Positions 5,154 to 64,000 of a stretch of 64,000 nt of DNA are shown here, piece by piece. The stretch is from Eledone cirrhosa. Taxonomy: Eukaryota. Every line of letters starts with the position of its first letter. Position 1 is the first letter of the stretch. The stretch covers positions 91,946,001-92,010,000 of the forward strand of contig OZ024741.1 in NCBI GenBank assembly GCA_964016885.1, in the 5' to 3' direction. Under the pieces are notes generated by a model that saw nothing but the letters and a program-made list of their open reading frames with translations, was not told the origin of the DNA and made no database searches. Position numbers and translations under genes: made by a program.

Positions 5154-6039
5154 TATTACATTTGGCGCGAAACCAGTTCGCGCTAAAATCAATTTAAACA
5201 TTCACGTGACTTCTACCGACCAATAAAAATTGTTTTGACTATAAGAATTTTTGCAACACGAATTGGCGCGAATTTATAGTAGTTATTCACGTGACATTCA
5301 ACAACCAACCAAATCTTAATATCTCCCAAGCCACTTTTTTCACATAAAACAGGAAGAATTTCCAAAACTGATCAGATTAGAGCAAAAATCACGAGCACTC
5401 TATCTCAAAATTATTTTTGAAAAGCATTAGAAATGCGCAACCGGTAAAAACTTAAAACTAAAACTGAATACTAACTAATACTTATTACTAGTTTATACTT
5501 ATTCCTAATTAAACTATTTTTCACTGGGAAAAATTTGTCACCATTTTCTTTTCCTTTTTACTAATATATCACAACTCGTGTGTCACATATATATGGATGG
5601 GACGGTGTTTACGCTCGCTGTTTGTTTATGCCCATAATCTAGTGGTTCGAAAATTGAGGTCGATATAATAATTACCAGATTTTGGTCCACATGATTGACT
5701 AAAGTCCCTTCATAGCAGTGTCGCAACATAGACACATAGTCAAATCACTGAAGCCAATAAAAGAGTTATCTATTCTGTAACCTGATGCTCGATTGTACAT
5801 ATTCACAATGTCCAACTGCGAATACCAACAATTCAATCATTTCCCCCAAAGTGAGAATAACAGCCGAAAGAGAAATGTGTATACTTCTAAAAGAATGGAA
5901 ACACAATAACGTGTGTGTGTATTTTGATTTGACAACATTATTCAAAATTTTAACTTTGCTCACGGAACCCTACGGTTAACTTAGCAGACCCCATATTTGG
6001 GACCACTGACTAAAATCTTTTGAGAGAAGATATCAATAG

Positions 6040-10739: not shown

Positions 10740-11332
10740 ATATGTATATATATATAGGATTTATTAATATTGTACGTAGATTTCATAAAGCTGATATCTG
10801 AGATTAGTCTGAGACGTATCTCAAGAGAGATAACTCGTATTATTTCTCTGTTCTTGTTGTTCTTTTTCTATATAGCTCCAGAAGAAAAACAACGAAACAT
10901 CAACATAAAAAGTATTTCCTAACATATGACGTTTGATGTTTGTCTGCTGATTTCTAGCAATTTTCTTAATCTATTTCATCTGATTTATAGAAACGAGAGA
11001 CGCGAGACTATATACGTCAATTATTATTATTGTTATTATTTTATATTAAAGAAGGAAATATGTAAACCAATCAGACTGCTCCAATACGTTGCATTTCGGT
11101 ATCGAAAGTCATCTATATAATCAAGATTTATATATATGTGTGAGTGTGTGTGTGTGTAACTCTGTGTGCGAATGTTTGTGTGTGCATGTATATATATATA
11201 TATATATATATACATGCACACACACACATAAATATATATATACACAGAGTAAAAGCGTATACATATATATATATATGATGTTCATTTATTTAAGGCTACA
11301 AGGTTTCACTGGAGTTTCGCATATTTTTAAAC

Positions 11333-11392
<60 letters not shown>

Positions 11393-11426
11393 ATATACGT
11401 ATATATATGTATGCATATACATACGT

Positions 11427-13256
11427 AAGATCAACCACAAGCATATCTCTAGGGAAACTACCCCGCCAATACACAACATACCACCAAACACTAAACACAA
11501 ACACATAACAGTATCACAACCACAAACGCTTCGAAACACACTAAAGCAAAACTTCAATAGGCATGAATCGCATAACAATTTGCAGAACCGCAATGTGAAA
11601 GCTGCACGGAATAATACTTCAAACTGCAATTGCCACCTACCAGATAAGTGCCCATTAGCGAATAGATGCCTAGATTCTAGCTTAGTGTGCATGTGTACTG
11701 TAAACTTGGGCAACTCCACCTGGCACTACATTGGATCCACCGCAGGTTGTTTTTTTTTTAAATGGTATGTACACAGACATTCAATGAAGAACCGTGCAAT
11801 GGTGAATTCCACAACCCTCGCCAATAAAATCTGGCAACTTAAGGACAAAAACCTTGATTACAATATTAGCTGGTCGAAATTAGCGGCCACAAAGGCCTAT
11901 AGCAGCGGTGTGTCCCATTGCGGGCTCTGCAACCTTGAATTGCTACATATCTTAAGGTACGATAAAATGCTACTTAACAGCAAAATAGAAAAGTCAATTT
12001 TCTGCTGACATAGGATTGCTACTAAATTTACGAGATTTAAACCACCGTGATACGAACCAGCATCCTCAAAATTAATGGAAAATCACTTAGAATTTCACAT
12101 ATGAAATCCGCATTCTCACACAGCCCACTTCAGAACCACAATCTTCTATAAACACCTTCCAGCCTACCTACATCTATACCACCAAGCTGGGGCAATAATA
12201 TCTACAAACATCTACCAATTATCATGTCAGCCCATTAATCAATCTAGCCTTTGCTGTTGTTTATTCTTTCGGACCAAACAATTATATCTATATATCTCAT
12301 ATTAGCATCCATGATCTCTAACAGATAAACTTAATTCTAAGTACATTACTTATTACCCTTACACCCCTTGAAACTCTTATTTTCTTATTTTCTTCTTATT
12401 AGTATTATGATCATCTCAATGTACCCTATCCCTAATTTTATTCATCATGTTCTCTATCTATTTACCATGCATATTTTATTGTTGATTTATTGTCTTAATT
12501 ATACGCTATTTGTCATTGATGTTGTGAAAACTAAACCCCAGGATTCGAACTAGCAATCCCAACATTTAGAATTAGCCACATAAACCTTAAAATACTGAAT
12601 CTACAATTTCACTTAATACTACCTAAGAACCATATATAATACTACCTAAGAACCATATATCTTTATACACTCACTCTATCATTCTAACTAAGTTGATACA
12701 ACTAAAATACTTATCTGTCAAACCATAAATCAATCTCTAGTTTATTGCTAGCGTGCTTTTAAACCCACAGCGCGCTTCTATCTGGATTCCTCATAATTGC
12801 ACTTAAAGGGTAGATTCCAAAAATCTGACTCTAAGTAAATTTTATTAGTTATCTCTTCATCCCTCAAAACTACATCTACTGTAACCTATAGTAGTTTCAC
12901 ATGTCAACTTCATACATTTGTATCATATCAGTTCGTTTACCATGCTAGTTTTATCATTATATTCTACATCTTACTTATATTGATGTTATTATTTTAACTA
13001 TTCAGTATCTAGTTATTTTGTTATTGATATTATTGTTCTGGTCTAATACCACTCCTCTATAAAAGCCATGCCTGGCGTATTATCCTCACATTCGCTCGCT
13101 CTGGTGAATTAACTGGTTATAAACAAAGTATTGGAGATCGATTGACGCAACATCTAGCGATTAGCGAACTCTAGACCTATCAGATAAAAGAAACAATTGT
13201 CAGCACTGTGAATAAAGCCCTTATTGTACAGACAACCATGTTACTCTTATTTCTTG

Positions 13257-14214: not shown

Positions 14215-15572
14215 GTCAGATATGATGGACCCATAAATAAGGAGAAAACCAGAACTGAATACCTCAGAAGAGTAAAGAAAATATGGTCATCAGAACTGTC
14301 AGCGTACAACAAATACATTGCCCACAATACTTATGCTGTGCCAATTCTAACGCCAACATTTGGCCTGCTGAACTGGTCATTGCAAGAACTAAGTGAGATG
14401 GATGTTAGAACTCGCAAACTTCTCAGTGTTACTGGGAACTTTAACATCAATGGTTATGTGGATAGGCTATACTTCTCACGCAAAGAAGGTGGCCGGGGTC
14501 TAAAATCCATATTAACATCATATGAGACCCGGATAGTAACACTGAAGCAACACCTTCAACAGAGGAAAAAGGTTGGCAACCATCTTGCCCAGGTTTATGA
14601 GCATGAAAAAAAAATATCATTAGAATAGCCACTGGTCTGGAGGAGAGATATGGAATAAAGCCTGATATAAATCTCTCACCCAGAGAAATCGGAAGATCCT
14701 ATTCAACGTTCAAACAAGATGAAAAGATTGACCAATTTACAGAAAAAGTTGTGCATGGATACTTGAGACGTAAAACACCGACCATAGAGGGGATAAACCA
14801 CTCAAAAAGCCTGGCATGGAGTTCCGACAAGTTTATGACATCACACCTTGAGGGATATCTCTATGCAATACAGGAACAAGAACTCCCTACCAAATATCTG
14901 CTGCACAAAAGGGGAGGGCCATCAGCTGACAATAAATGTAGGTTATGTAAAACAAAGATCATTGTTGCCAGCTGCGAAAGAATGTCATCTCGCTACTACC
15001 TCCCCATGAGACACGATGGGATGGCTAGAACCATCTCGAACGCACTTCGGAAAACAAAATTAACAACAAACGAGGAAGAATATATTGAGACAGATGGCAC
15101 TAAGGAATACTGGTGGAACCTGGAAATAAAAACTGCCACCAAATTAAAGCACAACTGGCCTGATATTGTTGTTTGGGACCACACATTGAAAACGTGTTCT
15201 GTTGTGGAGATCAGCTGCCCATTTGATGTAAACGTTGTCAGAAAAATACAGGAGAAGGAGGACTTCTACGGACCATTGATGAGGAGTTTGAAAATCTAGT
15301 ATCCAAGATACACCTTTAGCTTCATACCCATCATTATTGGAGCTGCGGGTTATATACCAACCCGTTTGGACCAAAGTATGACTGAACTTGGATTTGCGGA
15401 CAAAGAGCGCAGCTCCCTAATTCATAGTCTACAAATGGCTGCGATAGCTGACACCTTCAAAATTTGCAAAACATTCTTGCGATTCAAGGGATGACAATTT
15501 CTTTTCTTTTACAACCTTGCCACCAGGAAGGTGGCCGGTCAAAAAAAATACTCGAAATTAAGAGAAAGAGAT
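14215..15572 (+). mobile_element. R4/Dong-type non-LTR retrotransposon 3' part (RT thumb + Zn knuckle remnant + restriction-like endonuclease)
   Basis: NTYAVPIL..FG..NW..EL..D.RTRKLL, VDRLYFSRKEGGRGL, CRLC..IVASC, RHD, PDIVVWD..VVEISCP..K..Y. Flanked by (TACA)n on both sides. Confidence 0.88.
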
Positions 15573-16049: not shown

Positions 16050-17146
16050 CGTGGAAAAGTAAGAAATAGGAGAACAGACCGTTAATACATGTTTATTTAA
16101 AACAGCACCTACGTATGTTTCGCCCGGATGGGCTTCTCAAGGGCATAAATAACTAAAAGTGTTTCTTACATGGCCCGGAAAGTGTTTTGCGAGGTAAGTT
16201 CACGTCAGAGTTCATTCTTCGCAAAAAAGCGTATTTTGATTTTGCTGTAGGTCAAGGGGGATAACTCTGGTCGGTGTTAGGGCAGTATTTCCCGGACAAA
16301 TTTTTTATCCGTTACAAGATGTGGTTACAACCTTACCATTGTCGATACGCACATGGTCAGGTAAGCAACGTTTGTTTTGAGAGGTTTTTTCTGCACCTAC
16401 CCGCCTGGGTCGTTTGAAGCTAGGCCTGGGATGCGTGGTTAGTTTCCGGATGTTTTTTGCAGCGCATGCCCGCCGGGTGTTAAAGCTTGTTGCAGGGAGA
16501 CCCGGTATACGGTTTCACTCCTCATCCTTATCCCATCTGAAGAAGGATATTTTTAAGCGATGTGTACAGCTTATCGCCGTTTCAGCTCTGCTGTTGATGA
16601 GCTCGTGGGGTGCCGTTATGATGTGTTAGAGCTCCATGAGGCAAATATGGCACTTCCTCTTGAAGTTGTACGGTGCAGCCCTGCCGACAATATCCCAGTG
16701 CGTGGAGAAGCTTATGTTTAAGTCTTTTAATGATGTGATGTAGTCTGCGAGCGAAATGGAGTGTCTTAATTTCTTATTTTTGAAAGAGTGGAGATGTGTT
16801 CGAAATCTAATTTTGAACGGGCCAGAGGTAACCCCTATATAATGTTTAACGCTATTGTGGCTAGTTACAGTGCACCTATATATAACCCTATCAGTCAAGC
16901 AGTATCCCCTAAGGGGGCAGCGTCCCCTGTCGCGGCAGTTGCAATTTCGGTCGCGGTCCCTTCTAATTCCCACGGTAAGGCAATCATTATTGCTATCTAC
17001 GTTGTTACCTATTCTCCCGCACCTGACGCTAGCACCCTTACAACCCACTGTGCGCGGGGGTGGTACCATTATTATTCCGCACGTCATGTCCTGCATGTTC
17101 CCCAGTCATGTCGCGGTTATGTTGGTTGCGTCTGTAGAGGCTGTTG

Positions 17147-19865: not shown

Positions 19866-20226
19866 ATGAACGACACCACATCTTTTTAATTTTGATTTTG
19901 AAAGTAGATTTATAATTATCAAGTTTCATTATGCTTTTGTAGCTGTCTCGGTGGCCTAGCTGGAGGAATCATAGACGATGGTGATCCTGGTCTGAAGTTC
20001 GATCCTAGTAGGAATCCGGGTAAACCTTTTCATTTTTTTTTCTCTGAGTTGTAAAATAAAAAGTGAAAGAGGTTACACGTACCGCTTGACCAAGATTGAA
20101 CCCAAGGTCAGGATCTCCACCGTCTCAGGTAGCTAGCACAGAGACAACTACGAAAATGTTATGAAAATTCATACTTATAAACCTACTTTCAAAATGTTCA
20201 AAACAAAGTGTTGTGGTGTCGTTCAT
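19866..20226. mobile_element. Foldback MITE with two inverted tRNA-like heads
   Basis: Terminal IR ATGAACGACACCACA/TGTGGTGTCGTTCAT. Arms remain similar inward. Box A 19952-19963, box B 19997-20005, inverse box B about 20093-20102. Confidence 0.6.
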
Positions 20227-20578: not shown

Positions 20579-22839
20579 GAAGTTTTAGTCTATTATACAA
20601 ATTAGTGTCGGATATGTTTAAATCACAGTAGATTTAAAATAAGCCGTTGAAGTATGGAAAAAAGGGAAAGAAAAGAAAAAGAGAAAAAAGAGAAAAAGAG
20701 AAAAAGTGAAAAAAAAGAGAAAAAAGAGCAAACTCTAAGAGGAAAATAAGAAAACAAGAGAAAGAGAAAGAGAAGAAAAAAGAAAAAAGAAAAAAGAAAG
20801 AGAAAGAGAAAGAGAAAGAGAAAGCCCTAAGTGATAGGTTGTTGTATTAGCGTAACTTTTAAGATGAAGTGAAAAAATAAATGTTTATTGGATGAGTTAG
20901 GAAGAGTAAATAAGCGTGAATAGAAAATAAATAAATAATAATAACTGGAGAATTTTATCCGGTGTTTAAATATGATTAAATGTTTAGTTTATCAATTAAA
21001 CTATCAATTAAATTATTGAGATCCATAGATTAAAATTGAGATCTATATATTATTAAAATCTATATATTATTAAAACTATATATTATTTAAAAAATCTATA
21101 TATTATTAAAAGAATATATTCATATATATACATACGCACACATATATATATACATATACATATATACATACATACACATACATATATATACATACAATAA
21201 AAGATTTTTTTATGTTTAAGATATAGGAATTTTTCTAAACTTATAGATTTTTCAGAGAAATCGGAGAAAATATCGGAGAAAAATCATTTCTATGTAATAG
21301 CAAAACAGCGTGAAGGAAATTAAGTTATTTACTTATATTAAATGTTATAAATGTTAAGATAATAAAGGAAATTTAAGATTATACAAACCTTATATTATTT
21401 AATAGTAAGTTATAATTTTATAAATTTTATAAATTTTATATCTAATAAATCCACCTGTTATGTAGTTGTGACTGTTATTATATAAGTTTGTTTAGCATAA
21501 ACCGTAAGAAATCCTTTATAACAGAGTGCATTTGAATTGTATGTATATATACATATACATAACCCCTACATAGATACACACACATATATATACACATACC
21601 GGTAGACATGCATCATACACATATATATATAGAGAGAGAGATAAATATAGAGAGATAAATATAAAGTACATAATATAATTAAAGTACATAATATATAAAA
21701 TAAAATAAAATGAATTATAGTTTTAAAAGGAATTACGATTTGGAAATATATTCATACAATTTTAAGCAATATAACTTTAAAGCAATATAATTTTTAAAAA
21801 TATTTTTAAATATTTTAAGATATAATTTTAAAATAAGAATATGTCTAAAAATTCAGTATAAAAATGAACTTAAATTTTTTTTATATATAATATTTAACTC
21901 TCAGTATTTTTATAACCATATGAGAAATTTTCAAAGAAAAAGAAAGAGAAACTTTCAAAAAGAGAAACTTTCAAAAATAGGAGAAACTTTCAAAGAAAAT
22001 ATTTTCCCCCTTTAAGAGCTTTCAGTATGTTTATCTAGAAAAATTTTCTAGGAAAATTTTTTTTATAATGAGAGTTTTAAACAGTCAAATGAAAGAATCT
22101 AATGATTTATGGATAGGTTCAATATATTTAATAGAATGAGTTATATATTACATTTTAAATTTATATTTAAACGTTGAATTCAATCTATGTTTGCAGCAAC
22201 TGAAAAGATTGCTTCTTACGTTCAGGGAATTTTTGCTTTTTAATATAAAGAATATTTCCTCTATAAAGATCGCAATTTTCGGAAGAGGAGTTAAATGGAG
22301 TAGCTTTTGAAATAATATTCCAAAGTAACGAATATTTAACGTTCTTTAATTTAAGGTCCCATAATAAGCTAGATAGAGAAATTGAAGATTTTTTGTTTAA
22401 ATGCGTAAAAGAGCATTTATGGTTATTAAAACGAGATTTAAAATCTGTGGAAGTAGATCCTACATAATTAAATGAATTTAAATTAGTTTTTACATTACAA
22501 TTATATACTATATTTTTAGCTAAACAATTGTTATTTAACGGACAGTTAGATTTATTTCTACAGTAGTTACATTTATCAAAATTTAAGTCACTAGGAGCTG
22601 TATTATTAAATTGAGCTGTAAATTGGATATTGCTGGGGTTATTAGTGGTATTTTGGTTAGGTTTTAAATTTCTATTAATTCTATTAATATTCTGCGCTAA
22701 ATTTTTGGTGTATGAATAAGTTAATTTTATAGTATGTCTATTAAATATTGAGTAATATCTATGTGTTCTAGGGAAGCATTTGTCAAGAGCTTTAAAGAAT
22801 AGTTTAGCAATAGGAGTTTTAATATTTAATGAGAAAGGA

Positions 22840-23713: not shown

Positions 23714-23778
<65 letters not shown>

Positions 23779-23888
23779 TGTATGTATGTATGTATGTATG
23801 TATGTATGTATGTATGTATATATGTGTGTGTATGTGTGTGTGTGTGTGTGTGTATCTATATATCTATATCTATATCTATATCTCTCTC

Positions 23889-23920
<32 letters not shown>

Positions 23921-24304
23921 AAGATTTACATATATATATAAAGTCACAGATATATATATGGCAACCGGTCACGTTGTGGCTCAATGAAGAATTAATAAAT
24001 GAAATAATCAGAGCAATATATCATAAATCATGTCCCTAGAATTATTAGATAAAATATATACCATTTCCTCTCCCAATTAGCATAATTAACCATATAAAAA
24101 ATCAATTAGACCAGGCTATAAGAATAAAGGATCCTATGAAGAAATATTTGATAAATAACCGAAAGCGGCCTCTTCGCGGGGACCCTAATAGAGTATTTAC
24201 CCAACATTTCAACAGCATGTAGAAACTGACTAAATATACCGACAACCATACACAATTAAGTGTAAATTTAAACTTAGAAGAAATGTGTACATACCGTAAT
24301 TACA

Positions 24305-24381
24305 TCTCTACCATGGTTTCGTCCGTATTTTTAGATATCCTATTGTTAGGATGAATCTAGAGTAACAGACTCTTCAGGAGA
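24305..24381 (-). ncRNA. Hammerhead ribozyme with extended stem II (inverted twin)
   Basis: Reverse complement of 24776-24852. Confidence 0.82.
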
Positions 24382-24775
24382 CAAACTCTGTTGGACAGTT
24401 AATTTTCCAAATGCTAATTGGGAGATGAAATGGTATATATTTTATCTAATAATTCTAAGGACATGATTTATGATATATTGCTCTGATTATTTCATTTATT
24501 AATTCTGCATTGAGCCACAACGTGACCGGTTGCCACATATATATCTGTGACTTTATATATATATATATATGTAAATCTTTATATTTAATAATCTCCCGTT
24601 GGGTTGAGATGCAATTGGGCGATATTTGGCTGCGCTTTCTAGCAACCAGCCTGTGGCCGTAAGCAACTAATCACATTCTTTCTAACTTGACCACTGCCAC
24701 GTCACGATTCTTAGCCATTTTCGAATCTATTTTTGGCGCGATCGCTTTGGAAAATTAACTGTCCAACGGAGTTTG

Positions 24776-24852
24776 TCTCCTGAAGAGTCTGTTACTCTAG
24801 ATTCATCCTAACAATAGGATATCTAAAAATACGGACGAAACCATGGTAGAGA
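24776..24852 (+). ncRNA. Hammerhead ribozyme with extended stem II
   Basis: tctc CTGAAGA gtctgt...acggac GAAA ccatgg TA| gaga. Confidence 0.82.
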
Positions 24853-25013
24853 ATTGGTGCTCTGAAATAGCGATATATATATGAATATATATATATAGTG
24901 TATTTTGAATACACTCTATGCTTAATTAAAAGCATTTCGAAGACCTTACGCTATTGTTTTAGAGTAGTGATAGTCTCACTGACTTTAAATGTTCAGCAAA
25001 CAGGGGGAGATAA

Positions 25014-25058
25014 AGCTGACAGAGCTCTGTTTCGTACTTTTTGGTACTTATCAAAGCT
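25014..25058 (-). ncRNA. Hammerhead ribozyme, U3-A8 variant
   Basis: As above, with perfectly palindromic stem III ACAGAGCTCTGT. Confidence 0.8.
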
Positions 25059-25423
25059 AAGTACTCCATCTGTTTGCTGAAAATCATGAATGTATGATTC
25101 TTATAGAATATAAGTACCAAAAAGTACGAAACAGAGCTCTGTCAGCTTTATCTCCTCCTGTTTGCTGAAAATTTAAAGTAAGTGAGACTGTCACTTCTCT
25201 AAAACAATAGCGTAAGGTCTTCGAAATGCTTTTAATTAAGCATACAGTGTATTGCAAAATACACTATATATACATTCATATATATATCGGTATTTCAGAG
25301 CACCAATTCTAATTTTCAATTTCTGCTTGACCGGCAATCGCTCTGTATAATCAGTTCCTGATTATTACTAGAATTCTATAAGAATCAAACATTCACGAAT
25401 TTCAGCAAACAGGTGGAGTACTT

Positions 25424-25468
25424 AGCTTTGATAAGTACCAAAAAGTACGAAACAGGGCTCTGTCAGCT
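25424..25468 (+). ncRNA. Hammerhead ribozyme type I, U3-A8 variant
   Basis: agct TTGATAA gtac caaaaa gtac GAAA cagggctctg TC| agct; distal stem I 25400-25413/25478-25491. Confidence 0.8.
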
Positions 25469-25595
25469 TTATCTCCCCCTGTTTGCTGAAAATTTAAAGT
25501 AAGTGAGACTGTCACTACTCTAAAACAATAGCGTAAGGTCTTCGAAATGCTTTTAATTAAGCATACAGTGTATTGCAAAATACACTATATATACA

Positions 25596-25634
<39 letters not shown>

Positions 25635-28516: not shown

Positions 28517-30256
28517 TAGCGTGTAACATATTTTATGTTCCCCAATTCTATATGTCATTTCCTGGTTTGTTATATCCCATTATTATAAAAAAAAACACTA
28601 TTATTTAATCAGAAGTTTGGGTTTGTGGTCAGGAGTTTGATATTTTCAAATTTTCATATTTTTCAAGAAAAAACACATTTATTTTAAATTTATCAGTTCA
28701 TATAATTAAATCAACAGAGTATATATTTATTTTATTACACAAGCTTATCAAAAGCAAACAAGTAAAAACAAATAACACTTATAAAGCAACTTATACACGT
28801 CAGAAATGACTGGATTTCCTGGATTTGCGGTTGTAGTCCAGGTCGCATTCCCGCACTAGCCCCCAGATATAGTACCCCATCATTTTTTCATTGTAGTGGC
28901 CCTGGTACCTCCGCTCTATCTCTTTCACATCTTGGTGGAATCGTTCGCCTTGTTCTTCTGAGTAGGCGCCCATATTGTCCTTGAATTTTTCTAGGTGAGC
29001 GTCCAGCATATGGAGTTTAAGCGACATCCTGCATCCCATGGCGCCAAAAGCCTTTATCAGATCCTGCACCAGTTGCTGGTAGTTTTCAGCTCTGTAGTTG
29101 CACAGGAAGTCCTTAACAACTGCCTTGAAACAGTTCCATGCTGTTCTCTCAATCCTATTGAGCTTATTGGAGAACTCGGTAGACTCAAACACCTTCTTTA
29201 TCTGAGGTCCAACAAAAATTCCACATTTGATTTTGGCCTCAGATAACTTGGGGAAGAACTCAAGAAGGTACTTAAAAGCGGCTGATTCTTGGTTGAGAGC
29301 CTTCACAAACTGCTTCATCAACCCCAACTTAATGTGCATGGCGGCATGAGCACAATCCTGGGATCAACCAGTGGCTCCTACATGACGTTCCGGGTCCCAA
29401 CTACAAATTCTGTTCGCTGCCCCCAGTTCTTTCTTTTGTAGTGGTCAGGGGTGGCTCTGCTGTCCCAAAGGCAGAGGAAGCATTGGCATTTGATAAAGCC
29501 TCCTTGGAGTCCAAGCAAGAAAGCCACCATCTTGAAGTCTCCAATGATTTCCCAATTGTACTGGTTGTATTGCAGAGCTTCCAAGAGGACTTTCACACTG
29601 TAGTAGTCTTCCTTCAGGCAGGCAGAATGAGCTAGGGGCAGTGTCGAGAACTTGTTTACATTGTGGAAGAGGACAGCCGTCAAACTTATGGTGGAGCTTT
29701 CTATAAATAGCCGCCACTCCTTGGGCACAAACGGCACCCCAATAACGTCAAACAGTCCAGGCACGTCATGGAGAAGCAGAGGCCATCCCTAAGAGTGTAA
29801 AAGCCTGAGAAAGGTTCGTGTCGATTTCTCTGGCTTGTCACCTGCACTTCCTCCTTGACCAAGTTCCACTGCTTCATCCTGGAGATGAATGCTTAAAACA
29901 CAACTTACACTTTATTCAGGGTGCGAAAATCCAGTATCAATAAATCTCTTTAATCCACTTTTTAACAATTTTATACTTTATTGCACCTTTATAATTTTCT
30001 TTAGGTATTACTCTTTATTTTATAATTTTAATTTAACCTGAAACATATATTAAAAAATCATTTAATATAAGCAACTTAAACTTACATACAATGTAAAATC
30101 CAGCATACAAATAATTCTAGTGAATAGCTTAGAATGTTTACAAACCCAAACATTTAACTGTTTAACAGCACTTTTTTATTTGTTTGGGACCTAAGCAACA
30201 CAAAAAAAGTGATTACAAGCCAGGAACAGAGAAAAAACTTTTTTTGTTACACGGTG
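28517..30256 (-). mobile_element. Chapaev3-like (CMC) DNA transposon, internally deleted
   Basis: Transposase pieces 28800-29885 (GDFKMVAFLLGLQGG..CFLCLWDSRA; HIKLGLMKQFVKAL; MSLKLH; SEEQGERFHQD). Terminus CACCGTGTAACA at 30256 (minus strand), degenerate partner TAGCGTGTAACA at 28517, TTA on both flanks. Family assignment from recalled motifs. Confidence 0.75.
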
Positions 30257-31920: not shown

Positions 31921-32919
31921 AAGAGACCTTCTCTGGGAAAGGAAAAAAACCGTAATATACATATATATATATTCATGGAGTTACGTTTATGTGTATTTAG
32001 TATCGCAAGGGAATTCGGTCCTCGTGGGCATTTTCGGTATATAGTAGTTATAATAAATTATAGTAGTAAGTCATATTTCTTAAATTCTACACCAAAATCA
32101 ATATTTATGTGCTGTGTACTTTATTTAGAACAAACTATTCTTGCAACTTTTGCCGTTCTCGTGATAAACTCGGTTGGTACAATTTCAAGAAAAACAACAT
32201 ATGTGTGAAATGTGACACAAGGTCACAAATTTGTATGGCAGGAATGTAATGAACACTTTTTCGACCTCTGTAAAATGCAAAGTTGAACCCTAGAGATATC
32301 GAACTGAATACCGAATACTATTTAGACCAATACTTTAAAGGTTATGCCTCTACCTATAATTCTGGTGCTATCAATATTTATATTTTCGACATTTCTTTAG
32401 CATTCTGTCAGAGTAAAGTGAGAATCAGTAGACTATGTAAATTCTACATCTAAGATGAGTCCTTAGTATATTTATCAGTGTGTTTAGTATGTCACAGATA
32501 ATCTAATTAATCCCAGGTACTATTTTAGTATCACGTTACTCATTAAATTTATATAATAGTTGAATGCTCATCGTCGAAACCGACGCTCAATTCACCTGGT
32601 TGTAGGTAATCTTTTTTTGAGGCTTGCTAAATTAACCAGTAATTTTGTTTAAATGTCCTCCCTCCAGGGGCACTTAATTCCTAATAGAGTCGGAAATGCC
32701 TCATCTTGATATGGCGTGTCTCGGGTATTTAAACCTGGTAGAGCTTATACTTCTTCACGTCTGAACACAGCCAACATCTTTAGAGAAAATGAGAGTGAAT
32801 CACAGAGAAAGTAAGGAAGAGATAATGAAGAAAAGTTGACACCTGTAGCGGACTGGTACTTATTTATCGAAACGCTGAAAGGAATATTTGAACTCAGATT
32901 TGAACGGGATTTTAACTCA

Positions 32920-34005
32920 GGGAGTGGAATTCCCTACTCTACATCAACTTCATAGACTACGAGAAAGCCTTCAACAGTGTGGACAGAGAGACACTGTGGA
33001 AGCTGATGCTGCACTACGAAATGCCTGGGAAGATTATCTCCATCATCCTTTGCACTTACCAAGACAAGAGCTGTAAGATCTCCCACGCCAGCCAAGTGTC
33101 AGAGAGTTTCGAGGTGAAGACAAGAATTCGTCAGGGCTACTTGCTGTCACTGTTCCTCTTCTTTCTGGTCATTGACTGGATAATGAAAACCACTAAAACA
33201 GACAGTGGACACTTTGGACACAACTGGATGGCCGATTTTACTGATGACCTAGCACTCTAGTCACACAGTTGCGACCAGAATTAGGACAAGACCTCACGTT
33301 TGGAGACCACGGCAGCCGGGACAGGGCTCAAGAAAAGCAAGAAAAAAACCGAGCTGAAGAAGATCAACACTACTGCGAACACACCAGTCACAGTTGATGG
33401 AGAGCCCATCAGAGAGGTGGAGTCATTTGTCTACCTAGGAAGTGTGGTTGATCGATGTGGAGAAACCGACAATCTGAGGATTGTCAAGGCAAGAGCAGCT
33501 TTCATCATGCTAAAAACGTCTGGGCATCAAAAGAGATCTACCAAAGAACTAAAGTTCGCATCTTCAGCTCCAACGTGAAAACAGTACTGCTGTACAGATG
33601 TGAAACTTGGAGGACAACAAAGAAGGTGCAGTAGAAGATCCAGACATTCTTCAACACTTGTCTGAGGTGCATCTACAACATCAAATGGCGAGAGATCAGA
33701 AAGGAAGATATGTGGGAGTGAGCTAGACAGGAACCAGTGGCAAAGCAGATTCTGTGGAGAAAGTGGAGCTGGAAACTAAGAAACTAGCATCCCACCAACC
33801 TTTACCTGGAAACCACAGAGTAAGAGTAAGAGCGGTCGGCCCCGTGGCAGCTGGGGGAGTGATACTGAGGCTGGATTAAGAAAACTGGAAGCAAACTGGA
33901 GTGGAGTGGCGAGAGCAACCCAGGATCGTGTACGATGACGGAGGGTTGTAAATGGCTTATGCGACCACAGAGAACGATGGGGCTGAATGAATGATGATGA
34001 ATGAA
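32920..34005 (+). mobile_element. RTE-clade LINE 3' part (decayed RT)
   Basis: FIDYEKAFNSVDRETLW, RQG.LLS, DFTDDLAL, FVYLGS; ends in a (TGAA/TGA)n tail. Confidence 0.88.
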
Positions 34006-35659: not shown

Positions 35660-36198
35660 ATATATATGAATGTATGTATAGTATATTTGGCAATATAGCG
35701 TATGTTTATTTTAAAACATTTAGAAGACAATACGCTATCAGTTTTAAAGTAGTGACTATGTCAATTACTTCTTTTCGGCGAAAGAAGGGAGAGAGGCTGA
35801 CAGTCTGTTTCACATACAGTATATTGCCAAATATACTATACATATATTCATGTATACATCGCTATTTCAGAGCACCAATTCTAATACCTATTTTTTGCTG
35901 GACTGGCAATCGCTCTGTATAATCAGCTCCTGATTATTACTGGAATTCTATAAGAATCCAGCTTCTATAATTTTCGGCAGAAGCAGGGGTGTGCCTGGCT
36001 CTGATGAACGCCAATCAGCGTGAAACAGACTGTCAGCCTCTCTCCCTTCTTTCTCCGAAAAGAAGTAAGTGACATAGTCACTACTTTAAAACTGATAGCG
36101 TATGGTCTTCTAAATGTTTTTAATTAAACATACGGTATATTGATAAATATACTATACATACATTCATGTATACATCGCTATTTCAGAGCACCAATCCT
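35660..36198. mobile_element. Retrozyme-like unit, family A' (diverged subfamily with canonical HHR core)
   Basis: Inverted piece 35660-35812 plus tandem 35813-36198; shares CGCTATTTCAGAGCACCAATTCTAA etc. with family A. Confidence 0.82.
35997..36038 (+). ncRNA. Hammerhead ribozyme type I (canonical core)
   Basis: ggct CTGATGA acgc caatca gcgt GAAA cagactg TC| agcc. Confidence 0.85.
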
Positions 36199-36661: not shown

Positions 36662-36841
36662 CATATATATATATATTATAAATTGGTGCTCTGAAATAGC
36701 GATATATATATAAATATATATATATAGTGTATTTTGCAATACACTGTATGCTTAATTAAAAGCATTTTGAAGACCTTCCGCTATTGTTTTAAAGTAGTGA
36801 CTATGTCACTTACTTCTATTTTCAGCAAACAAGGGGAGATA

Positions 36842-36885
36842 AGCTGACAGAGCTCTGTTTCGTACTGTTGGTACTTATCAAAGCC
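36842..36885 (-). ncRNA. Hammerhead ribozyme, U3-A8 variant
   Basis: ggct TTGATAA gtac caaca gtac GAAA cagagctctg TC| agct. Confidence 0.8.
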
Positions 36886-37253
36886 TAGCACTCCTCATGT
36901 CTGTTGAAAATTATGAATGTTGGATTCTTATAGAATTCCAGTAATAATCAGGAACTGATTATACAGAGCGCTTGCCGGTCCAGCAAAAATGTTTGCTGAA
37001 AATAGAAGTAAGGGACATAGTCACTACTTTAAAACAATAGTGCAAGGTCTTCAAAATGCTTTTAATTAAGCATACAGTGTAATTCAAAATACACTATATA
37101 TACATTCATATATATATCGCTATTTCAGAGCACCAATTCTAATTTTCAATTTCTGCCTGACCGGCAACCACTCTGTATAATCAGTTCCTGATTATTACTG
37201 GAATTCTATAAGAATCCAACATTCATAATTTTCAGCAGGCAGGAGGAGTGCTA

Positions 37254-37297
37254 GGCTTTGGTAAGTACCAACAGTACGAAACAGAGCTCTGTCAGCT
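37254..37297 (+). ncRNA. Hammerhead ribozyme, U3-A8 variant with A6G mutation
   Basis: TTGGTAA core, otherwise identical to 36842-36885. Confidence 0.65.
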
Positions 37298-37422
37298 TAT
37301 CTCCCCTTGTTTGCTGAAAATAGAAGTAAGTGACATAGTCACTACTTTAAAACAATAGTGCAAAGTCTTCAAAATGCTTTTAATTAAGCATACAGTGTAT
37401 TGCAAAATACACTATATATACA

Positions 37423-37473
<51 letters not shown>

Positions 37474-40545: not shown

Positions 40546-40887
40546 ATATATTGGTAAACGGAATAGAAAATGCTGACAAATTGTTCACAGTTGAAAAATG
40601 GTTTAATTAGGAATAAAAGAGTATTAGTGATTGTATGGGTTAGTATTCAGTTGTGGTTTTAAGTTTTTAAGTTTTTACCGGTTGCGCATTTCTAAATGCT
40701 TTTCAAAAATAATTTTGAGATAGAGTGTCCGTGCTGTTTGCTCTGATCAGAGCAAACAGCACGGACAAAACTTAAAAACTTAAAACCACAACTGAATACT
40801 AACCCATACAATCACTAATACTCTTTTGTTCCTAATTAAACCATTTTTCAACTGTGAACAATTTGTCAGCATTTTCTATTCCGTTTA

Positions 40888-40897
<10 letters not shown>
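40546..40897. repeat. Long foldback (about 130-bp arms, perfect 42-bp central palindrome); single-arm relative at 5360-5570
   Basis: 40546-40677 is the reverse complement of 40768-40897; 40726-40767 is self-complementary. Confidence 0.88.
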
Positions 40898-44242: not shown

Positions 44243-44339
44243 GAGAGTGAGAGAGAGAGAGAGTGAGAGAGAGACAAATAGTGGTAGAACACTGGAAGGT
44301 AATATCCGTAGTGGTAGAGCACTCAGTCCATTGGACGAG

Positions 44340-45865
44340 TTAGGTACACTACCGTCGATGGTTTAGACAGGTTAATCATCGCTCACTGCCAGAAAACCAT
44401 CTTCTTCAACAATGGAGTAGCCTGGACAAAGAAGTCAACAACTGCACATCTATTCGACGTCTCCATGGGATCGTTTGACAGTGCTGACGTATGCGACTTG
44501 GTTGGCCTATTTATTTTAGATATATTACATGTTAGATTCCCGGACTTCCACACGGGAATATACCGCGACGATGGACTGACCTTATCGAGCCATAAAGGTG
44601 GTCACGACCTCGACCGGTTTAAAAAAGAAATAGCTTCTACCTTCAATGAGTTACGACTTAGGATAACAGTAGCTACCAACCTCTCTAGCGTAGATTTCTT
44701 AGATTAATTTAGACCTTCGCACACACACCTACAGACCCTTCCATAAGCTAAACGAAAATCTCAATTACATTCACAAGGACTCATGCCACCCTGTTTTTAG
44801 AAACTTCATAAATAATATCAGTACTAGAATCTTAAACCTCTCCTCTAATAAGGCTATCTTTGGTAGCGCGGCACCCTACTATAACACGGCGTTAGCTAAC
44901 AGCGGCTTCTCGCAACCTATCACTTACTCTCCCACTAACAACAACAGCAATAAGAAAAGAAAGCGTAGCAATAGACAAACTATCTGGTTGTCTCCTCCCT
45001 TCTCACTCAACGTTAAAACCAATGTGGGCAGACATTTCTAGCCCCCTTAGATAGTCACTTTCCCATAAGTCATAAATACCGCTCCATCTTTAACCGACAC
45101 AAAGTAAAACTAGGATACTTCTGCGCTAAGAACATGAAGGCCCACATCACCAACAGCCCTGAGAGCAACACCACACCAGGCTGCTCCTGCCGTAAGCCCG
45201 AAGCTTGTCCCCTTCAACAGCAATGCAACACACCCTCTGTAGTTTATGAAGTTGTGGTCACTTCCAACCGACTAAATCAACCAGAGGAGTTCAAAACCTA
45301 TGTGGGTATGGCGGAGGGCCGATTTTAGGAACGCTTCCTGAACCACCAGTCGACCTTTAGGTACCCGGACAGACGTTCATCCACGAAACTCGCGAGCCAC
45401 GTATGGTCCCTCAAGGACTCAAGTATAGACTACTCCATTCAATGGAAAGCCAACACTAAATCCAAGCCATACGCAAGGGGCAATCCGTCGTGTGGACTAT
45501 GCATTGATGAACGAATTAATATTCTAAAGAGATTACGCAATAGTGATTGCCTAAACACGAGAAATGAATTCTTCACACGTTGTCCACACGTCTGGAAACA
45601 CCTCTTACATAACTACAAAGCTCCGGATTGAATTACAACAACATCCTAATTTTCTTATCGACTAGAAACGTTCGGACTTTCGCAGTTATCTCCCTTACAC
45701 CTCTCGCACGCAATTTAGTATTGCCTGTGTGAAGTGATCGTTTCTGTGCATGCGCGTTCGTACGCTTGTCCTTCCTGTTCCGTATAACCATGCCCATTAC
45801 GAGCTGAGGATCCGCTAAGGTGAAACGATTGTTCTCGGTATGGTGAACTAACTGTTGTGTAACCA

Positions 45866-45868: not shown

Positions 45869-45954
<86 letters not shown>

Positions 45955-45956
<2 letters not shown>

Positions 45957-46700
45957 TTTATCAAATGATTATATGGACATACTTCATCGTATATTGCTCT
46001 GATTGTTGATTAATTAATTAATTAATTCGTCATTGAGCGCCATCGTGAATTGGTCGCCAAAATCACACATATATATATATATATATCCATGACTTTGTCT
46101 AGTTTATGTATATGTAAATCTTTATATTTGATAATCTCCCATATGGTTGAGATGCAATTTAGGCAGTATTAGGCTGCGCTTTCTAGCAACCAGCCCACTC
46201 GCCGTAAGGCACTAATCACATTCTTTCTGACTTGACCACTAGCTTCGTCACAGTTCTTAGCCATTTTGAATTCGTTTCTGGCGGGGATTATTTAAGAAAA
46301 ATCTTCGTCCAATTGAGTTTGTTTCCTGATGATTTCGAAACTCGTGAATTCATCCTTGATCGGATATTTCCAAAAAGCGAATGAAACCTCTTGGGGTAGA
46401 AACATAATTTTGGTATGCTTATACACATTTTTTCTTCTAACTTTGATTTTGTACCTAATTGTGTATGGTTGACGATATATCTAGTCGATTTCCACGTGTT
46501 ATTAGAAATGCTGGGTAAATATTCTATGGCTGTTGATCGCGGATAGATAGCTATCGTTGATTTATCTATTGTTTCTTCATAGATGCCTTTTAATCTTATA
46601 GCCCTGTTTAATTGTTTTTTGTGTGGTTGATTATGCTGATTGGGAGAGGAAATAATGTATATATTTTATCAAATAATTCTATGGACATACTTTATCGTAT
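45955..46700 (+). mobile_element. Retrozyme-like unit, family B' (one monomer of about 710 nt plus about 40-nt terminal repeat)
   Basis: TATTTTATCAAAT..ATGGACATACTT.ATCGTAT at both ends; colinear with family B; HHR 46320-46404. Confidence 0.8.
46320..46404 (+). ncRNA. Hammerhead ribozyme with extended stem II
   Basis: tgtttc CTGATGA t ttcg...cgaa t GAAA cctcttgggg TA| gaaaca. Confidence 0.75.
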
Positions 46701-46730
46701 ATATATATATATACATGGGAGGTCTATGTG

Positions 46731-47002: not shown

Positions 47003-47058
47003 ACTGCCTGATGAGGTCATAGCCATTCAATGGCTATCATCGAAATATATATAGCAGT
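47003..47058 (+). ncRNA. Hammerhead ribozyme
   Basis: actgc CTGATGA ggt c atagcca ttcaa tggctat c atc GAAA tatata TA| gcagt. Confidence 0.85.
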
Positions 47059-47285
47059 AAATAAAGGATTATGAGTTCATGCAATTGACTTATGTTTCGT
47101 CACTATATATATATATATATATATGAAAATGTTAGACCCCGACGGCAGAGCTCAAGCCGTTTCGACGGCTATTTCAGTCCAGAAATAGCCGAAACTCTGC
47201 CGTCGGGGTGTAAAATTTTCCTATTACCCACTCTACTACCCTAAGTGCGTGATGGTCCATCTGGTTCCTTACCACACCCCCTTCG

Positions 47286-50875: not shown

Positions 50876-52162
50876 TCACGGAGGTTTGAATCTTATGAAT
50901 TTAGTGGCTATTCTATGTCTGCAGAAGATAGATCTTTCTAACTTATTATTAAGTAGCCTTTTAACATTTCTAAGGATATACAATAGCTCAAGATCACACA
51001 GCCCGCAATAGGACATACCTGTACTATAGGTTTTAGCAGCCGACAACTTCGACCAGTTGATAGTGTAGCTAGCGTTGCTGTCCTTCAATTCCCATATTTT
51101 TCTGGCGAGGGTGGTGGAACCCATAAGAGCTCGGTTTTTCATCAAGTGCCTGTTCACATACCATCTTTTCTTAAAAGAGCCCGCGGTGGATCCTATGTAA
51201 TTCCAAGTGGAGTTACCCGAGATGACAGTGCACATGTACACCAGGCTCGAATCGAGACATCTGTTCGCCAATGGGCACCTATCTGGGAGGTGACAGTTGC
51301 AGTTTGAGGCGCTATTATGTGCAGCTTTTACATTCCTATTTAGTACCCTGTTATAAGTGGGTTGTGATATATGCCCAATGGGGTTTTGCTGCTGCGCGTT
51401 TGTATGCGCTTGTGGTTGTGATGTTGTGATGAGTTTGTGCTTATGTATAGGTGCAATTGATTTACTTGAGATATTTCTGCGGTTGATCTTGCGTATGTGT
51501 GATTCTATGTTAGCTGCTGTTGAAAAAGAGAGTTTTATAGTAGATCTATTGAGTATTTTGTGATATCTATGCGAGATAGGGAAGTGTTTATCTATTAGTT
51601 TAAAGAATGTAGAGGGCATTCTAGTTTTTATAGAGGAGTTGAATATTGGGTTGAACCATAGGTATTTTCTTTGTCTGTTTCTTCTATTGTTTCTAGGGTT
51701 TACGTTATTAGTGTTTTGGCCGTTTACTCTAGGTGTTACATGTCTAACCCTATGTCTAGTCAAGCTATTCCTATTATTATGTGAGCGGTTGGAGTAGAAA
51801 TTACTAGGATTGTTTATGTTGTCCTTATTCACTATATACTGTAGTTTATCTTTATGACCGGCCCTACTTAATGCTGCATTATAATAGTCAGCATGCTCGT
51901 TAAAGATTTCTAGGTTTGAAGATAGGCGGGATATTCGGAGGGATATACTACGTGCTATGAATTTAATTATGGATTTGGGGTGATTTGAGTTGTAACTAAT
52001 GTAGGCAAGATTTTCATTATTTTTGTGGAAAGGTTCTATTAATCCAGTATTTAGATTTAGAGTTACATCTAGAAAATTTACCTTCTTATGGTTTAGTTCG
52101 TAGGTAATACTTAGGCCTAGTTTTTTGAAGAATATTCTAATATTTTTCCTTAGTCTTTCCAT
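50876..52162 (-). pseudogene. PLE RT thumb + Zn-finger + GIY-YIG endonuclease
   Basis: NFLDVTLNL, SNHPKSI, WFNPIF, CNC-x5-CPL-x3-C, VY...YIG, CGLC, CRH. Confidence 0.9.
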
Positions 52163-52857
52163 GCTCTAAGTAACGTGTCGTCCCTATAAATTCCTCCTTG
52201 GAGGTTACTGAATTCCTTATGTAAGTTGTGTGCTATGAATAGCCCCACGATATCTGTAATTTGCGCAGAATCATTTGAACCCATTGTAATATCGAAGCTA
52301 TTTATTCTATCCTTTCTTACCCAGTAGTTATTTTCAAATTTTACGATAGTCCTTCTAGCTGCTATTATTATTTCAATTTCATCATGGGTAAGATCAGAGT
52401 TATTTTGGGCAAATATAAGCGCCTTATCTAGGGTAGCTGGGGATATGGATGCATAATAGTCGTCTATATCAAATTGTATGAAGTTACACGTCTCCCTATT
52501 TTGTATTTTATTGAACCATTTAATTGCCTCGTTAGTGTTGCCCCATAGATTGATTTCTAGTTTACCCTTTATTTGTGCGATTACCCTATCTAGAATGTTT
52601 TTGCTAATTTTACCTATGTCTGACTCGGATGGGCATATTAATCTAATGGTAGGATTAGTTTCAAAGTTATTTTTGTGATCTTTCAGGTTAAATGTAGGGT
52701 TGCACGGGGTCTGCGGTTCGGTCCTATCTGAAATTCCGAGTTTATTAACTATCTTGAGGCCCTCCGTGTTTATGCTGGTGAGTGTAGATTCATTTGTTTT
52801 TTTGTATTTTTTATGTAGTTCACGCTGAATAAAGTTATTGTATGTGTTAATGTCCAT
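52150..52857 (-). pseudogene. PLE reverse transcriptase core (frameshifted)
   Basis: RT motifs KDHK, IRLICP, FDIDDYY, MGS, YRDD. Confidence 0.9.
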
Positions 52858-52889
52858 AGAGTATACGTTTGATGTTTTGTCTGCTTTTA

Positions 52890-53635
52890 CTATTATATTA
52901 TATTATATTATATTATATTATATTATATTATATTATATTATATTATATTATATATTATATTATATTATATTATATTATATTATATTATATTATATTATAT
53001 TATAATATATTATATCATATCATATCATATCATATCATATCATATCATATCATATCATATCATATCATATCATATCATATCATATCATATCATATCATAT
53101 CATATCATATCATATCATATCATATCATATCATATCATATCATATCATATCATATCATATCATATCATATCATATCATATCATATCATATCATATCATAT
53201 CATATCATATCATATCATATCATATCATATCATATCATATCATATCATACCATACCATACCATACCATACCATACCATACCATACCATACCATACCATAC
53301 CATACCATACCATACCATACCATTATATATTATATATTTTATATTTTATATTATATTATATTATATTATATTATATTATATTATATTATGGGCGGTGGAT
53401 TGGCAGTATCGGTAGAGGGTCGGACGCCATGCTTTCCAGCATAGTTACGTCCCTTTACGATCTGAGTTCAAATCCCGCCGAGGTTGACTTTGCCTTTCAT
53501 CCTTACGGGGTCGATAAAATAAAGTACCAGTAATGCACTGGGTAATTGCTGGCCTTGTGCCAAAAGTAGAAACAATTATATTATATTATATTATATTATA
53601 TTATATTATATTATATTATATTATATTATATTATA
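52890..53635. repeat. Compound pentanucleotide array (TATTA)n-(TATCA)n-(TACCA)n-(TATTA)n interrupted by a SINE
   Basis: Directly visible. Confidence 0.95.
53391..53578 (+). mobile_element. Same SINE family within a (TATTA)n array
   Basis: Full-length copy; tail runs into (ATTAT)n. Confidence 0.9.
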
Positions 53636-60589: not shown

Positions 60590-61410
60590 AACAATTGGAA
60601 CCTGGAACATCACAACCTTTACAGGTAAGGTGCAGGAACTAGTTGATAAAGGTAGATGATACCGGCTAGTTCTAGTCGGGGTTTCCTCAACAAGGTTCCA
60701 TGGCCCTGATACTTTAGATTTGTGGGGATACTCACAAGCCCCGGCTGTTAGAATGTGTTATCGACTGGATACCATTAGGAGGGAAGATTTGCCTCGTGAA
60801 GCTTGGGCTGAAAAATACGTCTCTGTGGGTGGTGAAAGTTTATGCATCAAACAAGGGTTCCCAATACAGATCCTTCCTTGATGAAGTCACTGCAGCATTA
60901 AATGCAGTTAAGACTGAGTCATATATCCTGATGCGAGACTTCGATGTAAATGTTGGCACTGACCACCTGACATGGAAAGAAGTGATAGGAAGCAATGGTG
61001 ACTCCGATCTAAATACGAATGGAGAGGCCTTGCTAGACTTCTGTTTTAGCTATGGACTCTCTATTGTGAACACCTTTTTCAAGTATAGATACATCCATAA
61101 ATATATATGGTATAAGAGTAATCGGGGACAGAGATCAATAATTGATTTTGTTATTGCCATTGATTTCGTCGATTCTGTGCTGGATGTTCGTACTAAGAGA
61201 GGGGCTGAGCTGCTAACTGATCACCATCTAGTTATCTACAACCTGAGGCTACTTAAAACCTAAGAAGCTCACAAAACTGGCAGGTCCAGAGCGACCTACA
61301 GGATAAAGTTGGGATTGTTGATGGATAAGGAAGTCAGGACCAGGTATGCAGATACTATTGCATCGAAATTCAGAGAATCCACTGAGGAAACTGAGAACGT
61401 TACACCAAAT
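60590..61410 (+). pseudogene. LINE (RTE-like) APE endonuclease fragment
   Basis: GTWNI near 60597; VYA, LMRDFDVNVG, NTNGEALLDFC, IVNTFF, SIIDFV, TDHHLV. Confidence 0.85.
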
Positions 61411-63441: not shown

Positions 63442-64000
63442 CTAGTTGGCCCGGCTAGGTATACCGGGATTTTATCTTTGCACTCCAGTGCAAAGATACC
63501 GCATGCCCTCTCAAGTCAGCGGGATGGGAGGGGGGGTTAACGTGCTCTGATGTTGGGTTTGAATAGTTTTTAGGATTCCCCAGTTCAGCAAATTATTTAA
63601 ATTACATTGTTAGAGCCTCAGAGTATACAATATTTTTTGTTCCTCCCTCCGGAGCAAAGATGAAGAGATTGTTTGGTGAGCTCACCCTAGAGCATCCTAC
63701 ATACAATTGACCATGGGAGAATCAATGATTTCGTAGCTTGTCTCGCGGAGAAGCTCTGTAGACGTTGACCTCTGGACACTCCTTTCAGGAGCAGGTAAGC
63801 TGTAGTGCCTTAGAGGCCTACCACCATTCTCCAGGACACTGTTTTCAAGACAAATGAGCGCCTCATTGAAAATTGGATTGTGTCTGCGTGTGCGGTGGAG
63901 GATGTCCTCAGCTAGACTTTCACGGTGGTTGTTCCACAGTGCGAGAGGGTCGGCGAGATCGCAGTTGTGCAGCATAATAGCAAAAAGTTTTCGCAGCTGA
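63442..64000 (-). mobile_element. Helitron deletion derivative with RepHel coding fragment
   Basis: QLRKLFAIML..C..ADPLALW..H...LAEDI..NEAL..LE (Rep-helicase linker) at 63697-64000. 3' hairpin CCCGG..CCGGG and CTAG|T at 63442. Confidence 0.8.

Follow-up and report, generated by a model that had tools for sequence, protein, structure and literature searches.

A non-coding hammerhead repeat with inverted, differently phased arms in microsatellite-rich animal DNA, probably a non-autonomous derivative of Penelope-like elements

The 64-kb window, by which we mean the whole stretch of DNA that was analysed, is animal-type DNA of 35% GC in which (TA)n and other microsatellites are abundant, and which also holds decayed copies of Penelope-like elements (PLEs), LINEs and short repeats. 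The window was compared with itself by BLAST after masking of the microsatellites, which otherwise swamp the matches. This comparison placed a repeat, referred to as family B, at two loci, 23916-24852 (B1) and 45949-46702 (B2), and a search of the 64-kb window with nhmmer and a covariance model returned no third locus. The features considered here are:

23721..23919, no strand: (TA)n/(TATG)n microsatellite, left flank of B1 and its likely target
23916..24411, minus strand: B1 minus arm, block order C-D-A, 0.75 unit; its 3' end is a 5-nt TATAT match to the microsatellite
24084..24304, minus strand: block D, 221 nt, read from 24304 to 24084 in the minus arm; present once in B1
24303..24383, minus strand: minus-arm hammerhead motif of type I, which is intact and was read through; cleavage predicted after 24309
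24411: head-to-head junction of B1, 1 nt common to both arms
24411..24852, plus strand: B1 plus arm, block order A-B-C, 0.67 unit; its 3' end lies 1-4 nt beyond the predicted cut
24411-24584, plus strand: block A, 174 nt
24585-24745, plus strand: block B, 161 nt; present once in B1
24746-24852, plus strand: block C, 107 nt; contains the hammerhead
24774..24852, plus strand: plus-arm hammerhead motif, with cleavage predicted after 24848; the junction shortens stem I to 4 bp
24850..25598: family C composite C1 adjoining B1 (minus arm 24850-25109, plus arm 25110-25598), tail-to-tail with B via AGA; hammerhead degenerate
24850-25598, 35668-36198 and 36681-37428: the three family C composites
45949..46702, plus strand: B2, a 708-nt monomer plus a 46-nt overrun, with (TA)n on either side; its 3' end is a TATAT match
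46320..46404, plus strand: hammerhead motif of B2; predicted cut after 46398
11331-12050 (plus), 16530-17105 (minus), 22188-22800 (minus), 44318-45631 (plus) and 50879-52902 (minus): decayed RT/GIY-YIG PLE fragments

Several other repeats share the window. The masked self-comparison recovered a SINE-like family of about 190 nt, whose 11 copies, full-length or partial, are 70-98% identical (at 1865, 2895, 4393, 27795, 30634, 37901, 38719, 38931, 41650, 53390 and 59182). Further palindromic inserts lie at 40552-40890 and 5369-5587, which are relatives, and at 19866-20226 and 47125-47220; the arms of the 40552-40890 insert stand head to head, are near-perfect and end at (TA)n. LINE-type or transposon-like frames were seen at 32916-33257, 60718-61260 and 14215-15296 on the plus strand and at 28803-29788 and 63700-63999 on the minus strand, among which Pfam recognised RVT_1 (E 1e-7) and Exo_endo_phos_2 (E 4e-6), the others having no confident match.

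Family B is confirmed as a real structure, a hammerhead-bearing repeat unit that lacks a coding signal. The unit measures 663 nt in B1 and 708 nt in B2 (GC 0.35 and 0.34, respectively), and the two copies are 76% identical, with 503 matches and 159 mismatches in their alignment. In B1 it takes the form of two inverted arms with outer limits at 23916/20 and 24849/52, which differ at 5 of 275 aligned positions (98% identity) and match each other over 23960-24083 and 24411-24534 (97.6%, E 2e-54) and over 24305-24411 and 24746-24852 (99.1%, E 6e-48). Jointly the arms span the full 663 nt, sharing the 174 nt of block A at one junction and the 107 nt of block C at the other. A first-pass annotation of this DNA had read them as different circular permutations of one unit; their phases do differ, but each is an arc and neither is a full permutation. 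The order it gave for the minus arm, namely hammerhead, body and terminal block, is borne out as C-D-A from 24411 to 23916/20. Its course for the plus arm, from the terminal block to the hammerhead, likewise stands, while the end that it put about 4 nt past the cut becomes a range of 1-4 nt, with AGA common to family C. B2 had been described as a monomer with an overrun, and so it is, although the overrun is 46 nt rather than 40 nt and the copy reaches from 45949 to 46702 rather than from 45955 to 46700. Its block order is A'-B-C-D-A'', the overrun being 91% identical to the start of B2. With 1.06 units B2 is the longest family B copy in the 64 kb and a partial tandem, which neither B1 arm is; a tandem array with two same-strand hammerheads was not found within the 64 kb. 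Since all four block junctions are present in B2, the block order is not an assembly artefact of one locus.

Conservation between the loci is highest over 46109-46268 and 24571-24730 (82-90% per 40 nt), a stretch comprising block B and the end of block A that lies upstream of the hammerhead and not inside it, and which may represent a promoter or a protein-binding element. Block D (24062-24310 on the minus strand of B1, 46396-46660 in B2) carries in both copies a motif resembling a splice donor about 15 nt past the cut site and, about 150 nt beyond that, one resembling an acceptor; the block may be a retained intron of the kind seen in PLE 5' regions.

The hammerhead core and its three helices are present in all three family B arcs. 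A descriptor scan for strict-core type I hammerheads found eight in the window, three of them in family B, while 20 block-shuffled windows gave two in total. In the minus arm the motif consists of a 6-bp stem I, a 50-nt stem-loop II and a palindromic 8-nt stem III. Despite the 76% identity of the copies, 12 of 12 invariant core positions are kept between B1 and B2 (chance 0.04 at 76%), and 95% of the helix cells are paired in the true register compared with 26-56% in slid registers. Covariation had been claimed for stems I and III. Stem I, like stem II, indeed shows one two-sided change between B1 and B2, but stem III does not covary, as its three pairs are invariant and it is lengthened by a 4-nt insertion; with two independent sequences only, and 53 of 500 shuffles scoring equally high, the covariation is not significant and is suggestive only. 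Cleavage by this hammerhead is a prediction, and the folding results speak against activity: the active fold is 3.3-4.3 kcal/mol less stable than the predicted minimum, and that of B2 is no better than its shuffles (z +0.46). In B2 a U-U mismatch replaces G10.1-C11.1. The 8-nt palindrome of stem III in B1 gives a self-duplex of -11.2 kcal/mol, whereas stem III of B2 is able to close as a monomer.

Rfam yielded 0 matches at the gathering score over the whole window, and among the 150 of 208 matches listed by its E-value search nearly all were microRNA models on microsatellites. In focused searches the family B hammerhead had no match and family C alone matched, to Hammerhead_HH9 (E 0.008; its 23 bits fall short of the cut-off of 52). 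A conserved 22-nt motif found nothing in prokaryotic genomes, a comparison that is uninformative for an animal repeat. Further single hammerhead-like motifs were noted at 47008 (plus), 58139 (minus), 13390 (minus), 3451 (minus) and 45804 (plus), several with a long stem II and an AT-only stem III. The motifs at 47008 and 13390 are each part of a short insert flanked by (TA)n runs; the 45804 motif, which is weak, follows a PLE stop codon.

A coding origin of family B was considered and ruled out by short frames, missing periodicity, indel lengths and the lack of a protein match. The longest ATG frame is 47 aa, the B1/B2 mismatches show no codon periodicity (p 0.87) and of 14 indels only one has a length divisible by 3, which upholds the first-pass statement that there is no ORF. 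A stop-to-stop frame of 125 aa on the antisense of B2 matched neither Pfam nor any of 74 candidates of 220-2000 aa, and among the matches listed by a six-frame tblastn nothing but B itself appeared at E < 0.4.

Family C served as an internal control for the arrangement of the arms. It is a hammerhead repeat with a 321-nt unit, found in three independent head-to-head composites, and its hammerhead core is intact only at 36001, the others reading UUGAUAA or UUGGUAA. All three composites have one arm that stops in the TA run around unit position 170 and a second that continues for about 30 nt, to near 200, which corresponds to the one-sided tail known from PLEs; the long arms amount to 1.52, 1.36 and 1.21 units. 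Given that 3/3 composites have inverted, differently phased arms, such arms are the rule for repeats of this kind here. Within one window, family C starts at two fixed sites, in contrast to family B, which apparently starts at several. The similarity between the two families is weak (score 34 against a null maximum of 28) and is probably an effect of TA runs.

The scattered, homology-bearing 3' ends are the remaining oddity of family B. Placed on B2 coordinates, they fall at 46 (B2), at 178 (minus arm) and just beyond the cut site (plus arm), and the 5' ends lie near 685, 707 and 345. Of the four outer ends that B1 and B2 have, three border on (TA)n and the fourth on family C. TATAT is found at both TA-flanked 3' ends, even though 5-nt TA runs occupy 25 of 663 and 20 of 708 positions of the unit (joint chance of about 0.001). 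This pattern favours priming by short RNA-DNA pairing, although a later deletion between TA runs could also have produced it. No target duplication was readable in the (TA)n flanks of B. Moreover, the usual two-site tail of 30-40 nt is not seen among the three ends of B, which belong to two subfamilies and include one end that is possibly truncated. At the plus arm the last 3 nt (AGA, which occurs 7 times on the unit) are common to the natural end of the adjoining family C copy, and the probability that one of three ends lies so near the cut site by chance is 0.02-0.04. This end may reflect AGA priming on the family C end, copying from a cleaved RNA end or later truncation by family C.

Family B also had to be placed relative to the PLEs of the window. 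Four of five C-terminal PLE fragments carry a CxCx5C linker and a CxxC motif, and DKT is present in the one N-terminal fragment examined; PMC8557442 gives these as marks of the Hydra clade and describes that clade as inserting into (TA)n. The longest fragment has no Pfam or PDB match, and its 52 homologues (24-38% identity) are mostly unnamed, three being named from a stony coral (28-29%), so that the clade call is based on motifs. A DNA link between family B and the 3' regions of these elements was sought and rejected, as similarity did not rise above shuffles in any of the five. Between B2 and the nearest PLE stop codon upstream, 318 nt away, come the 3' region of that PLE itself and a (TA)n run. 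Both observations indicate that family B is therefore not the fixed pLTR of any PLE ORF in the window. Copies always abutting a PLE ORF as a fixed linear pLTR, together with an absence of circular reads, had been named beforehand as the finding that would speak against the first-pass reading; in the window the unit instead closes on itself in two 76%-identical copies, with 0/5 links to PLEs. A helper from the Hydra clade, represented by the decayed copies in the window, is nevertheless likely, and is suggested by co-occurrence, since 0/5 PLE ends are linked to B.

Taken together, we consider it probable that family B is a non-autonomous PLE derivative of the retrozyme type, mobilised in trans and copied from a source longer than one unit. 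The requirement for such a source follows from the arms: a single linear template would have to measure at least 770 nt (C-D-A-B-C) or 837 nt (A-B-C-D-A), compared with a unit of 663 nt, and would have to run through the hammerhead, which is intact in the minus arm; this points to a source that is circular or tandem. The arms of B1 would also be compatible with two templates from a locus with terminal redundancy. The earlier proposal of reverse transcription around a circular or tandem RNA thus holds as far as a source beyond one unit is concerned, but the three arcs cannot separate a circular from a tandem-linear template.

The DNA itself shows a unit that closes in two diverged copies, arms joined head to head, flanking (TA)n and TATAT at both TA-flanked 3' ends; from this we infer the following course. 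A tandem locus would be transcribed beyond one unit, and its RNA may or may not be cut by the hammerhead and circularised. A PLE reverse transcriptase/endonuclease acting in trans would then cut both strands of AT-rich DNA at a (TA)n microsatellite, and each DNA end would pair over a short stretch with the RNA, at differing points of the unit, and so prime a separate cDNA. The two cDNAs would stop early and join head to head, leaving arms in different phase. The idea of twin priming comes from LINE-1 work. In vitro, a PLE protein cleaves and extends both strands and prefers AT-rich DNA, as described in PMC11167929; there it uses two fixed start sites that are not homologous to the cut DNA, and hammerhead cleavage is not needed. 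Several features temper our reading of family B as a trans-mobilised derivative. There are only two loci with three arcs, and neither a tandem array, a link to PLE ends nor a two-site tail was found; the predicted active fold is above the minimum and in B2 resembles shuffles, B2 has the U-U mismatch, and Rfam gave no match.

The alternatives weighed below concern sub-steps of this course and overlap with it. The best of them, although we regard it as doubtful, is that B1 originally consisted of an inverted short arm and a plus arm of more than one unit, the remainder of which was removed by family C, making the end at the ribozyme site a secondary breakpoint. Long arms do exceed one unit in 3/3 family C composites and in B2, compared with 0.67 in B1, the 5' starts of the B1 plus arm and of B2 are only 22 nt apart (chance 0.19), and the junction coincides exactly with the natural tail end of family C. 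Such a loss would however need a deletion of about 290-400 nt, no B remnant is present to the right of C, and the breakpoint would have to fall by chance within 4 nt of the cut site (the 0.02-0.04 given above for one of three ends). The arms of C1 are also more diverged than those of B1 (4.0-4.4% against 1.8%), a difference that is not significant (p 0.17) and does not settle the order in which B1 and C1 were inserted.

A true circle, that is, a circular RNA of 660-710 nt ligated from monomers that the hammerhead releases and copied by two reverse transcriptases from two start points, each overrunning the start of the other, is in our view unlikely as the specific template. It would account for the coverage of all 663 nt with overlaps of 174 and 107 nt, for B2 as a monomer with a short overrun and for the three different 3' phases; the circle of B1 folds better than its shuffles (z -2.96, 25 shuffles), and retrozyme circles have been described as abundant in coral, mussel and axolotl. 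The same footprints can nonetheless arise from a tandem transcript, the circle of B2 folds with a z of only -1.52, the 5 differences in 275 positions suit two templates as well as later mutation, and the main substrate of the PLE in vitro is described as uncleaved RNA. An even more specific version is improbable to us: that two reverse transcriptases at both ends of one break copied one 663-nt RNA circle made by the ribozyme, jointly with one start at the ligation site and each enzyme displacing the cDNA of the other. If true, this version would directly demonstrate the copying of circular RNA by PLE enzymes, with priming guided by homology and independent of phase. A literature search, outside of which most subscription papers fell, returned no demonstrated circular template and no retrozyme ends mapped on a circle.

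We give a similarly low probability to a fixed linear mini-element A-B-C-D-A whose terminal direct repeat is block A, or to a solo pLTR tandem derived from an autonomous PLE located elsewhere in the genome, copied in either case from an ordinary linear transcript. An 837-nt A-B-C-D-A RNA would supply both arms, block A contains or borders both TA-flanked 3' ends and two of the three 5' ends, and non-autonomous PLE derivatives that form pLTRs have been described. Yet the two 3' ends within block A are separated by 106-132 nt, both subfamilies, at 76% identity, have a unit that closes without an ORF, and neither an ORF remnant nor a link to the PLEs of the window was found. An assembly or fold-back artefact is hardly credible, for although inverted repeats between microsatellites are hard to assemble, as has been noted for PLEs, the arms are not mirror images, each has a block that is missing from the other, 5 positions differ between them, and the independent B2 copy confirms the block order.

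The derivative reading that we prefer can be set against several known systems, as far as these are described in the sources cited here. PLE insertions are reported to comprise partial tandems, an adjacent inverted and 5'-truncated copy, a tail of 30-40 bp and microsatellite targets (PMC8557442, PMC3846280), with permuted halves in inverted orientation and antisense self-priming as an alternative route to head-to-head copies (PMC3846280). Family B resembles such EN+ PLE insertions in its head-to-head, inverted and 5'-truncated copy, its partial tandem, its (TA)n target and a hammerhead with a palindromic stem III, but it has no RT/GIY-YIG ORF, and the two-site tail of 30-40 nt is found in family C and not among B's three ends. 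Likewise, the anole PLE of PMC11167929 initiates without homology, whereas the 3' ends of B have microhomology to the target. The minimal or variant hammerheads of PLEs in PMC4209133 share with B a short helix I, an enlarged helix II and a small palindromic helix III suited to a dimer, palindromic stems III being linked there to dimeric activity; stem-loop II of B is far longer (50 nt), and stem III of B2 can be closed by a monomer. The same paper, which in 2014 proposed circular templates for more-than-unit copying, describes opposite-strand hammerhead pairs 100-700 bp apart, comparable to the hammerheads of B1, which are about 400 nt apart. The non-autonomous Chlamys elements, such as MRC1 (PMC8557442), are short PLE derivatives that form pLTRs and head-to-tail copies; they share 3' sequence with an autonomous partner, and most Chlamys are described as having no canonical hammerheads, while B has no partner among the PLEs of the window.

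With metazoan non-LTR retrozymes family B shares a non-coding unit, one type I hammerhead, a GC content of about 35%, co-occurrence with PLEs and dispersed copies of monomer type, and a circular-RNA template is the published model for these elements. PMC7229834 (2020) describes circles of 170-400 nt, proposes PLEs as helpers and holds a circular-template hypothesis. The first-pass annotation called the unit large for this class, which is true relative to these 170-400 nt; B also differs in its 50-nt stem-loop II, in place of a 4-bp helix. Its length nevertheless falls inside the 51-972 bp (mean 650 in ray-finned fish) that a preprint reports for retrozyme units tied to pLTRs (bioRxiv 10.64898/2026.07.22.740005), where in vitro cleavage was absent in 8 of 9 retrozyme dimers tested. 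Active retrozymes are defined by at least two tandem hammerhead units; with a longest copy of 1.06 units in 64 kb, B fits the monomer class of the preprint. Plant LTR retrozymes also are non-coding, hammerhead-bearing and form circles of 600-1000 nt, but their hammerheads are of type III and lie in LTRs, with PBS/PPT and 4-bp target duplications, whereas that of B is of type I. Neither unit size nor inverted permutation is therefore exceptional, and a circle is possible. Little in this is new, as PLEs ordinarily insert with truncated arms standing head to head and with partial tandems, circular templates are already in print as a hypothesis, and so is the unit size as a reported value. Family B extends a known class by one long unit of the retrozyme type. 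It is useful as a test case, in that the positions of its ends on the unit bear on circle versus tandem copying by PLE enzymes and on the use of the hammerhead cut site as a start.
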